A stretch of DNA of 64,000 bases from Escherichia coli (GTDB taxonomy: Bacteria; Pseudomonadota; Gammaproteobacteria; Enterobacterales; Enterobacteriaceae): NCBI RefSeq assembly GCF_045037415.1, contig NZ_CP173438.1; one strand, written 5' to 3'. Position numbers: made by a program. This document shows positions 52,501 through 55,500 of the stretch, one piece after another; the stretch's first letter is position 1, and the number at the start of each line of letters is the position of its first letter.

Positions 52501-55500
52501 AAGGGCGGGCATTGTAGCGCTGTGGAGGTAACTGGTAAAGCGCCGGACGCCAACAACCTACGCCCGGCATCGTAATTACGTATTGTCTTTCACCGTCTGG
52601 CTTGTGCCATTTGCTTTAACGGAGGCAATTCCGGTTTCACGAGATTGCGCGGTGGCGTACATCTGGCTGGAGCCGATAATTTGATGATTGGCGGCTTTCA
52701 GATTGAAATAGAATTTGCCGTTGCTTGCCGTTTTTTTCTCATAGCGTTCTTCTTGCGGGCTGTTGCTACGTACCGACGCGATGCCCTTTTCCGCAGAGGC
52801 TTTTGAGGTATACAGCTCGCTGGTGAGGATAGTCTCACCATTGCCCGCTTTTAGCACAAACCGGAATTGATTATCACTGCTCTTACTGAGTTCAAACCAA
52901 CCAGCCATAATGACTCCTTGATTGAAATTGCGTATCGAAAACAGCATCTAAAAGGACTGTTTGCCGATTAAAGTATGAGCGATTTTCTGGTGCCTGCCAG
53001 GGCGGAGAGATCATGTCAGTTTGCTGACTATGCGTGGGATAATGTTGCCGGATCTGGTCTGAAGGCCAGATCCGGCAGGTAAAAATGTTAAACGATGCGG
53101 CAGGCGTCGGCTTCCCAGCGGTAACCGACGCCGTAAACGGCGCGGATAAATGACTGTTCGGCGTCGAGAGATTCCAGCTTGCGGCGCAGGTTTTTAATGT
53201 GGCTGTCGATGGTACGGTCGGTTACCACGCGGTAGTCGTCATAAAGATGGTTCAGCAACTGCTCGCGGGAGAACACTTTTCCTGGTTCATGAGAGAGCGT
53301 TTTCAGCAGTCGAAATTCTGCAGGCGTCAGGTCAAGCATTTTACCGCGCCAGGAAGCCTGAAAACGACCTTCGTCGATAATCAACGGGCTTTCAGCATCC
53401 TGTTGCTGCAACTCACGCTGCGGTTTGCAACGGCGCAAAATGGTTTTGACGCGCGCTACCACTTCCCGTGGGCTGTACGGCTTGCAGATATAGTCATCTG
53501 CGCCAATCTCCAACCCCAGCAGGCGGTCGATCTCTTCGATTTTTGCCGTCACCATCACGATCGGAATGTCAGAAAAACGACGAATTTCCCGGCACAGCGT
53601 CAGGCCATCGGTGCCAGGGAGCATCAGATCCAACAGGATCAGATCCGGTGGTGTCTGGCGCACATATGGCAGTACCTGATCGCCGTGGCTAATCAACGTT
53701 GGCGCATAGCTCGCAGCACGCAGATAATCAATGAGCAACTGCCCCAGCTTCGGTTCATCTTCCACGATCAAAATACGCGGTGTGTTTTCGTCGATTGGTA
53801 ACTCGGTCATACTTCTCTCTGTAAATCCCGTTCCAGCGGTAACTCTACTGTAATGCTAAGCCCGCCAAAAGGCGAATGGGCGGCAATAATGCGGCCGTTA
53901 TGTGCTTCAACAATGTTCAGGCAAATCGCCAGCCCCAGCCCGGAACCACCGCTGGCGCGGTTGCGGGAACCTTCGGTGCGATAAAAACGTTCAAACAATT
54001 TTTGTAGCTGATCGTCACTGACACCCGGCGCACTGTCGGCAAAGGTCAGGCGCACCGTTTTGTCGTGCTGCTCGGCAGAGATTTTCAGGCTGCCGCCGCT
54101 GTCAGTGTAGCGCAGGCTGTTTTCCAGTAAGTTATTGAACAACTGCATTAAACGATCGCGATCGCCAAATACGGTAATACTGTCTGGCAGGGAAAATTGC
54201 AATTTCAGGCCACGGCTGGCGAATCGTTCGCGAAATGCGCCTCCCGCCACTTCCAGCAGTGGGATCAAATCTATCGGTGCTTTTTGATAGGCGAGAGCGC
54301 CTTCATCAGACATAGACAATTGATGGAGATCGTCAACCAGTTTTGTCAGTGTACCTACTTCTGCCTGTAAAGAAGCCAGCGTCTCCGGCGTGAATTTACG
54401 CACACCATCCTGAATGGCTTCCAGTTCGCCGCGCAGTACTGCTAAAGGCGTGCGCAGTTCATGAGAAATATCGGCCATAAAATCGCGGCGCATCTGCTGG
54501 TTTTTCTCCAGTGTGCTGGCGAGTTGATTGAAATCCTCTGCCAGTCTGCCCAACTCATCTTCGCTGGTGGGGGCTACGCGAGTAGTGAAATCACCCGCTG
54601 CCAGTTTGTGCGTGCCATCCACCAGTCGTTTTACCGGAGCCAGCAAACCGCGCGCCAGTGGGAATGTCGCCAGCGCCGCTAATAAGGTAGATAAAGCCAC
54701 AATCAGCCAACTGGTTTGCCGCTGTTGTCTGTCAAAATTGATATCAGTATTACGGGTCAGTCGTTCAACAGGGGAGGCGATCACCGCGCCAACTTCCGCA
54801 CCATTGACCATAATGGGCCGCCGTGTGCCGTCGGGTGGAACTGGTGCTCGCGGGCCAACCAGCACTTTGTTGTTTTGATCAACCACCCAAAATTGTGTGC
54901 GCCAGCCGTGTGGCGGCATACCGGGGCCGGGCTTATCTTCGTTGTTATCATGCTCCAGTGAACGTAGGATCTGAAATACAAAGCGATCGTTATTACGCAG
55001 GAAGCGCCAGTTCCCGTGCTGGGCGTACTGCTCACCAAGCGCATCGCCGAGCATTTGCAGCCGTTGTTCATTACCATGCTTGATGTAATCGATAAAGCCG
55101 CGCTCAAAACTGATACGTACCGCCCAGTGCATCGTGATCAATAAGACAATGCAGGTGGCGAAAATCGCCAGAAACAGTTTGCCGGTAATACCGGGTCGCC
55201 AGAACTTCATTGCGCGCTCCTTTTTCGCCGTGAAATAGCCACATTTTGATGCGTATCGTTCGGCACTCTGGCAAAGATGAACGCCGGAAGGGCGATGATA
55301 GACGCCATGCTAAGCCAGGTGTACATAAAGACGGTTTGTGTGGTGCCGCTGTCGACGCTGACATGCTGCGAACCAAAAAGTCCCAGCAACAGCCCGGCGA
55401 TGGTGACGCCAATACTCATCGACAATTGCATAATCATCGACAGCAGACTGTTGCCGCTGCTCGCCAGGTTGTCCGGGAGATCTTTCAGCGTCAGGGTGTT

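Follow-up and report, generated by a model that had tools for sequence, protein, structure and literature searches.

The y-type repetitive extragenic palindromic (REP) units of Escherichia coli are GC-rich stem-loops of about 32 nt that lie outside genes, in the 3′ untranslated regions (UTRs) of operons, and REP units as well as bacterial interspersed mosaic elements (BIMEs) are reportedly linked to Rho-dependent attenuation. Two other described structures are close to them in form: the canonical intrinsic terminator, in which a U-rich tract of 7-8 nt stands 3′ of the stem, and the protective stem-loop of Rho-dependent transcripts, a stable stem that has neither a U-tract nor an upstream A-tract and is followed by more C than G. 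We compared with these systems a perfect palindrome in a 64-kb stretch of E. coli DNA (the window, to which all coordinates refer unless another record is named). The hairpin lies on the minus strand, as do baeR and yegP, and falls within the 3′ UTR of baeR, the final gene of the mdtABCD-baeSR operon. The best explanation overall, to which we give a probability of about 0.55, is that it is a decayed REP unit that became perfect by a template switch and that would act as a barrier to exonucleases.

The palindrome was first described as having perfect 11-bp arms, and the arms at 53047-53057 and 53066-53076 (GCCGGATCTGG and CCAGATCCGGC) are indeed fully complementary. A flanking T:A pair (53046/53077) lengthens the stem to 12 bp, giving an inverted repeat of 53046-53077 with a loop of 8 nt. 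The distance of 12 nt from the baeR stop that had been given also holds, in that the 12th nucleotide past the stop is the first base of the 11-bp arm; counted to the 12-bp stem, a 10-nt spacer (CAUUUUUACC) intervenes, and the stop-to-stem distance is 10-11 nt. Read in mRNA sense, the order is UAA-CAUUUUUACC-UGCCGGAUCUGG-CCUUCAGA-CCAGAUCCGGCA-ACAUUAUCCC. The minimum free energy of the hairpin is -24.0 kcal/mol in this sense (z -6.0 for 66 nt, -8.2 for 44 nt) and -28 to -30 kcal/mol on the opposite strand. The window contains two inverted repeats with perfect arms of at least 11 bp and a loop of 3-10 nt, the one between baeR and yegP being the longer, against an expectation of 0.13 per 64 kb of first-order Markov sequence. 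Given this expectation and fold z-scores of -6 to -8, the hairpin is not a chance feature. With canonical intrinsic terminators it has in common a GC-rich stem (12 bp, -24 kcal/mol) a few nucleotides past the last stop codon of an operon, but it differs from them, as the initial annotation had noted, in having no U-rich tract on either strand: what comes after the stem is ACAUUAUCCC when read as mRNA and GGUAAAAAUG when read on the plus strand, and a terminator scan found no intrinsic terminator at the baeR-yegP hairpin. A run of five U sits upstream of the stem in mRNA sense, where it is irrelevant to termination.

The ancestry of the hairpin is best seen in its orthologs. Alignment of the baeR-yegP spacer from eight strains yields four alleles. 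Allele 1, that of the window, reads UGCCGGAUCUGGCCUUCAGACCAGAUCCGGCA and combines the perfect stem with a 10-nt spacer after the stop; allele 2 (FDAARGOS_1291, Nissle 1917 and ATCC 11775) is allele 1 with GCCGGAGAUGG, which introduces two central mismatches, and has the same 10-nt spacer; allele 3 (K-12 and O55:H7) pairs the imperfect core of allele 2 with a 22-nt spacer; and allele 4 (Lstone01, MG32 and ETEC4071) reads UGCCGGAGAAGGCAUUCACGCCGCAUCCGGCA after a 10-nt spacer. The stop-to-stem spacer of E. albertii is 22 nt long like that of K-12, and an 11-nt indel accounts for the difference in the alignment. As reference we took the K-12 REP consensus GTAGGacgGATAAGgCGttCACGcCGCATCcGGCA that Nunvar et al. 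2010 published in their Table 1. Among 31 positions of the stem-loop, allele 4 (GCCGGAGAAGGCATTCACGCCGCATCCGGCA) agrees with it at 29; the sequence that E. albertii has at the same site (GTAAGCCGGAGAAGGTGTTCACGCCGCCTCCGGCA) agrees at 31 of 35, three of the four bases of GTAG among them, while agreement falls to 25/31 in K-12 and 24/31 in the window. Only 0.05 matches within eight substitutions of the consensus are expected per random 64 kb. When allele 4 was used as a 71-nt query, it found at least 40 places per genome in 5,425 of 5,426 E. coli genomes. Likeness to the consensus is thus strong in the orthologous alleles and weak in the window copy, which nevertheless keeps an outer stem (GCCGGAU...AUCCGGCA) identical to that of y-type REPs as well as their extragenic, transcribed position, here on the mRNA-sense strand, past the baeR stop and ahead of the yegP promoter. 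A permissive Rfam scan of 52300-53400 found no known RNA family; apart from a spurious match to a small nucleolar RNA, the sole match was a weak one to the REP-derived naRNA4 (19.7 bits, gathering score 59.5). These comparisons indicate that the hairpin is very probably a decayed, solitary y-type REP unit in REP-sense orientation with the baeR mRNA.

Several properties of the window copy itself speak against counting it as a REP. The GTAG tetranucleotide at the stem foot, which is important for recognition by TnpA-REP (PMC8266576), is not retained; the window has ACCU, K-12 GUUA and E. albertii GUAA. The stem is a perfect 12 bp with no internal mismatch, where group 2 REPs typically have an imperfect one and where alleles 2-4 and E. 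albertii retain an internal loop of 2-3 nt. The window allele is present as a single copy per genome and is no longer detectably repeated, and it stands alone outside any BIME, there being no second REP in the 179-nt spacer. Because it departs from REPs in its GTAG, its stem, its copy number and its BIME organisation, the window copy would best be termed a degenerate REP derivative, and decay has taken a different course in different lineages. The suggestion of a REP-like element therefore stands as a statement about ancestry, borne out by the near-canonical orthologous alleles, and not as a description of the window copy. The feature table of NC_000913.3 lists no REP features in 49 kb, but this is uninformative, because a bona fide GTAG-REP in the K-12 segment L010 (12451-12481) is likewise unannotated.

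A second REP-like unit, GCCGGATAAGGTGTTTACACCGTATCCGGCA, is present in the yegS-gatR spacer at 48868-48899 (L010 4650-4681 in K-12). It is four substitutions away from the consensus, has GTAT for GTAG, and is the sole other GCCGGAT...ATCCGGC palindrome in the window. A short direct repeat flanks the hairpin after baeR, AACATT in the window (53089-53084 and 53046-53041) and ACATTAT in K-12 (L001 3009-3015 and 3053-3059). It resembles a target-site duplication from a mobile insertion, but we set this reading aside, the E. albertii version being weak (TCATTAG/TCAGTAT) and target duplication not being known for REP/IS200-type mobilisation.

A GC-rich hairpin shortly after the baeR stop was found in 10 of 10 inspected loci with baeR>yegP synteny, and its type differs between genera: in Lelliottia, Enterobacter soli and one metagenome-assembled genome it is a canonical terminator that includes a T-run, the hairpins of Citrobacter and Kluyvera are U-poor and unrelated, and that of Escherichia is the REP. 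Across 80 enterobacterial species, 13 carry a REP-family unit no more than 130 nt past the baeR stop, compared with 0 of 640 coding control segments, and most of these units share the mRNA strand and are offset by 18-22 nt. Citrobacter and Enterobacter species in which yegP does not lie downstream possess a genus-type REP of their own, GGCCGGGTAAGGCGAAGCCGCCACCCGGC, 18-36 nt past the baeR stop (L012, L013, L023, L032, L042, L085 and other loci), with an offset and strand near those of the Escherichia REP. This distribution suggests an old REP site past baeR that may have evolved in concert with the REP family of each genome. In one Escherichia lineage (L014, a record titled E. coli SCPM-O-B-8794 that is a separate GTDB species representative), the baeR-yegP spacer is an entirely different sequence of 227 nt (1923-2150) that has no REP; it contains another U-less hairpin, CCCTCTCTGAAAAAGAGAGGG, and its part proximal to the yegP promoter is conserved.

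Within E. coli, 5,387 of 5,426 complete genomes contain the element a single time, as found with a 44-nt query. The genome-wide search for the palindrome that had been proposed accordingly returns one place per genome, and one in the window; local BLAST showed that an apparent second copy in the records with the identical form comes from the palindrome aligning with its own opposite strand. Long-spacer alleles of the K-12 type account for about 67% of genomes (3,654) and short-spacer alleles for about 30% (1,630), and allele 2, with the flanks of the window and a GA core, was counted in 401 genomes. The identical perfect form occurs in 563 records, about 10% of the 5,426, nearly all on one 201-nt haplotype (552 records at ≥99% identity). 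Within about 30 bp, both spacer lengths (22 and 10 nt) are found with both stem cores (the REP-like one and the CAGACCAGAUC-type), the four combinations being those of E. albertii, of K-12, of allele 4 and of alleles 1/2. This implies either that recombination took place within the element or that other REP copies acted on it by gene conversion. In the perfect allele, GATC (Dam) sites are found in both arms (53051-53054 and 53069-53072), and the ancestral imperfect alleles have the 3′-arm site only.

How the stem became perfect can be traced to two bases. At stem positions 7-8 the window has UC in mRNA sense (53070-53069), where alleles 2, 3 and 4 and E. albertii have GA; since GA is common to all of these, it is the ancestral state and UC the derived one. 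The two changed bases are adjacent and each now complements the opposite arm exactly. Because such an adjacent double change restores complementarity, an origin in a single event is proposed, and GA>UC would fit one quasi-palindrome template switch during replication. Perfection of quasi-palindromes by template switching has been documented for E. coli as well as from comparative data, and it yields perfect RNA hairpins (PMC7202029, PMC8794818). Our case resembles the events of the Ripley model, of the Lovett-lab assays (PMC7202029) and of Monttinen & Loytynoja (PMC8794818) in that an adjacent multi-nucleotide change copies the opposite arm and leaves a perfect repeat, and differs from them in that the event is deduced purely from a population comparison in which the immediate parent haplotype is unsampled. 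A synthetic query for the predicted parent (the window flanks with GA) had no exact match in the 5,426 genomes, which counts against this origin. The perfect stem is best taken for a mutational accident of one lineage and not for a functional need that has been conserved.

What the hairpin does is a separate matter. Its anatomy is that of protective stem-loops of Rho-dependent transcripts: a stable stem, no U-tract, no upstream A-tract, and C in excess of G afterwards. In the 80 nt downstream of the hairpin, 26 C are opposed by 12 G, which places this segment at the 98th percentile among all segments of 80 nt on this strand of the window, and the stretch is rut-like in composition. The stem-loop would form once transcribed; in the absence of a U-tract, RNA polymerase would not be released there, and part of transcription would continue into yegP. 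Where transcripts end or are cut downstream, possibly through Rho at the C-rich untranslated stretch, 3′-to-5′ exonucleases would trim them to the foot of the stem and halt, leaving a protected baeR 3′ end. An RNA-stabilising role is plausible because of the U-less protective-stem anatomy together with the C-rich 80 nt downstream, and we tentatively favor, at somewhat less than even odds, a passive 3′-exonuclease barrier in the baeR 3′ UTR.

The available transcript data, all of which concern the imperfect-stem allele of K-12 under non-inducing conditions and at low expression, and the variation of the stem itself argue against such a role. The K-12 Term-seq tables of Adams et al. 2021 contain no 3′ end at 2165000-2165199, the nearest being the yegP end at 2165559. 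In SMRT-Cappable-seq (single-molecule real-time sequencing of capped transcripts), an operon variant baeR-yegP (b2079 and b2080, start 2164245) is listed and no termination site is called at 21650xx. Paired bases show no significant covariation over nine sequences, with 59 of 500 shuffles scoring at least as high as the data, so that selection on pairing is not demonstrated, and stem stability ranges from -17 to -24 kcal/mol among strains, a spread that suggests drift more than constraint. Here lies the difference from the protective stem-loops, in that K-12 reads through into yegP and neither a mapped 3′ end nor bicyclomycin dependence is documented. The initial annotation had held that read-through without processing at the site would speak against its suggestions; a baeR-yegP co-transcript does exist, but only for the imperfect K-12 allele at low expression. 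As this co-transcript is listed and neither a 3′ end nor a termination site is recorded, transcription can read through the hairpin, which is not an efficient terminator. A literature search gave no relevant small RNA from the baeR 3′ UTR and no relevant RIL-seq (RNA interaction by ligation and sequencing) signal, and the TRS supplementary data have no entry for the site. The start at 2164245 (+) lies inside baeS, a short way upstream of baeR, equivalent to about 53841 (minus) in the window, and its authors flag its novelty relative to RegulonDB.

Alternatively, the hairpin would be a neutral REP remnant in a variable spacer, with no function and with its perfect stem a template-switch accident in one clonal lineage. 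This is the main alternative to an exonuclease barrier and falls only slightly behind it in likelihood, though each taken singly is doubtful. Stem sequence and stability vary widely among strains (over the range given above), covariation is not significant, in K-12 read-through is recorded and no 3′ end was detected there, an 11-nt indel affects the spacer, which is replaced altogether in the L014 lineage, and the perfect form is confined to about 10% of genomes and one haplotype. Absence of function sits less well with the finding that all genera with baeR>yegP synteny have some kind of hairpin just past the baeR stop, and with the recurrence of REP units at the site in 13/80 species, which suggests a retained structure. 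Moreover, from established REP biology, any 3′-UTR stem of -17 to -24 kcal/mol would be expected to impede polynucleotide phosphorylase (PNPase) and RNase II to some extent.

The position of the hairpin at the end of an operon and upstream of the independent yegP promoter could also make it the stop signal of mdtABCD-baeSR, either as a weak intrinsic terminator without U-tract or as part of a Rho-dependent or REP-type attenuator by which the yegP promoter is insulated. Related genera use canonical terminators at the equivalent site, which would agree with this, as would the C-rich, G-poor stretch downstream and the link between REP/BIME elements and Rho-dependent attenuation that a citing source credits to Espeli 2001. 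We nevertheless consider a stop signal unlikely. Neither strand has a U-tract, full-length primary transcripts of K-12 span baeR and yegP, two datasets are without a termination site or 3′ end there, and the Rho table of Adams 2021 has no entry at the baeR-yegP site.

The short distance between stop codon and stem bears on a further possibility, that the hairpin acts as a translation-coupled brake. According to the description in PMC12306157 of Liang et al. 2015, REPs that a gap of under 16 nt separates from the stop codon lower translation of the upstream gene. A stem 10-11 nt past the stop might block the terminating ribosome, and stalling and mRNA cleavage would then lower BaeR. As the rule is described there, the 10-nt spacer of the window falls within it and the 22-nt spacers of K-12 and E. 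albertii do not, and among the alleles the perfect stem has the greatest stability. The rule as reported was, however, set up on canonical REPs. Among the strains checked, those with the short spacer and some with the long one have an identical BaeR protein, with no hint of a compensating change, and in one other long-spacer strain the BaeR accession differs. A brake would also be an effect of the element and not the reason why it exists, and we regard this possibility as slightly less probable still than a stop signal. The more specific proposal, that the 11-nt deletion (22 to 10 nt) and the template-switch perfect stem together created a ribosome-blocking hairpin and a clade-specific reduction of BaeR, would be quite improbable; if it were true, the Bae envelope-stress response and the MdtABC efflux response would be lower in a clinically common clone.

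Finally, the palindrome could act at the DNA level, either as the operator at which a dimeric regulator controls yegP or as a site for a REP-binding protein such as gyrase, IHF or Pol I. It is perfect, lies about 100 bp upstream of yegP and has two GATC (Dam) sites, one per arm. The initial annotation had likewise entertained a protein binding site, but this is not supported, as the central bases of the stem vary among strains while the yegP promoter is conserved. The repeat is moreover imperfect in most strains, and a long distance separates it from the -35 element downstream. Sites for gyrase and IHF are a feature of BIMEs, and this REP is solitary and not part of a BIME. We judge a DNA-level site to be very unlikely and the least probable of these readings.

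An odd perfect palindrome can in this way be explained as a decayed copy of the commonest repeat of E. coli, and as such it has little importance and does not merit pursuit as a novel regulatory element. The hairpin is ordinary and would, at most, give protection to the end of the baeR mRNA. It does show that a REP can decay beyond recognition in most strains and still be recognised through its orthologous alleles, which calls for caution with REP catalogues drawn from single genomes. In addition, the four natural alleles, which vary in stem quality and spacer (10 or 22 nt), could be used on the <16-nt translation rule and on the exonuclease-barrier idea, with baeR as a test gene that is relevant to efflux and envelope stress.

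Table 1. Coordinates of baeR, yegP and the elements between them in the window
Feature	Position	Strand	Basis or remark
baeR coding sequence, response regulator; stop TAA at 53090-53088	53088..53810	-	Open reading frame (ORF) list; RefSeq annotation of SK1144 and K-12
10-nt spacer CAUUUUUACC, short-spacer allele	53078..53087	-	Sequence; alignment with 11-nt indel
Hairpin 5′ arm (mRNA sense) UGCCGGAUCUGG	53066..53077	-	Sequence, fold, allele alignment
Hairpin loop, 8 nt, CCUUCAGA in mRNA sense; REP consensus there is CGUUCACG	53058..53065	-	
Hairpin 3′ arm CCAGAUCCGGCA	53046..53057	-	Sequence, fold
C-rich, G-poor untranslated stretch past the hairpin, overlapping the yegP promoter	52966..53045	-	Composition count
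Small inverted repeat GUCAG-CAAA-CUGAC	53015..53028	-	Largely conserved among E. coli alleles
yegP promoter: -35 CTGGCA (53000-52995), 17-nt spacer, -10 CATACT (52977-52972)	52972..53000	-	
yegP coding sequence, DUF1508 family	52576..52908	-	ORF list; RefSeq annotation

On the minus strand the genes follow one another in the order baeS, baeR, 179-nt spacer, yegP and trhP, and the window sequence at the baeR-yegP locus is identical to that of strain SK1144. By genomic SELEX (systematic evolution of ligands by exponential enrichment), Shimada et al. 2014 located within the baeR>yegP spacer a constitutive promoter of the sigma-70 type with the elements CTGGCA-17-CATACT, and yegP has been reported to be strongly RpoS-dependent. 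The -10 region of yegP is conserved in other genera and the sequence directly after baeR is not. The small inverted repeat GTCAG-CAAA-CTGAC listed in Table 1 is situated some 15-30 nt upstream of the yegP -35 element and could be a putative regulator site for the RpoS-dependent yegP promoter. A plus-strand ATG ORF of 35 codons (52975-53082) that runs through the hairpin is most likely spurious, as indels and multi-base changes separate the strains there.

In E. coli NN5 (NZ_CP126348.1; L008 654-1253), homology stops 53 nt into the yegP-proximal spacer and is followed by a frameshifted transposase of the IS4 family, and baeR and the hairpin are therefore displaced or lost there. The other perfect repeat of the window with arms of at least 11 bp, AGCCTGTGTAA-GGGAGA-TTACACAGGCT at 50905-50932, is presumably the stem-loop of CyaR, judging from its position where synteny with K-12 places cyaR.

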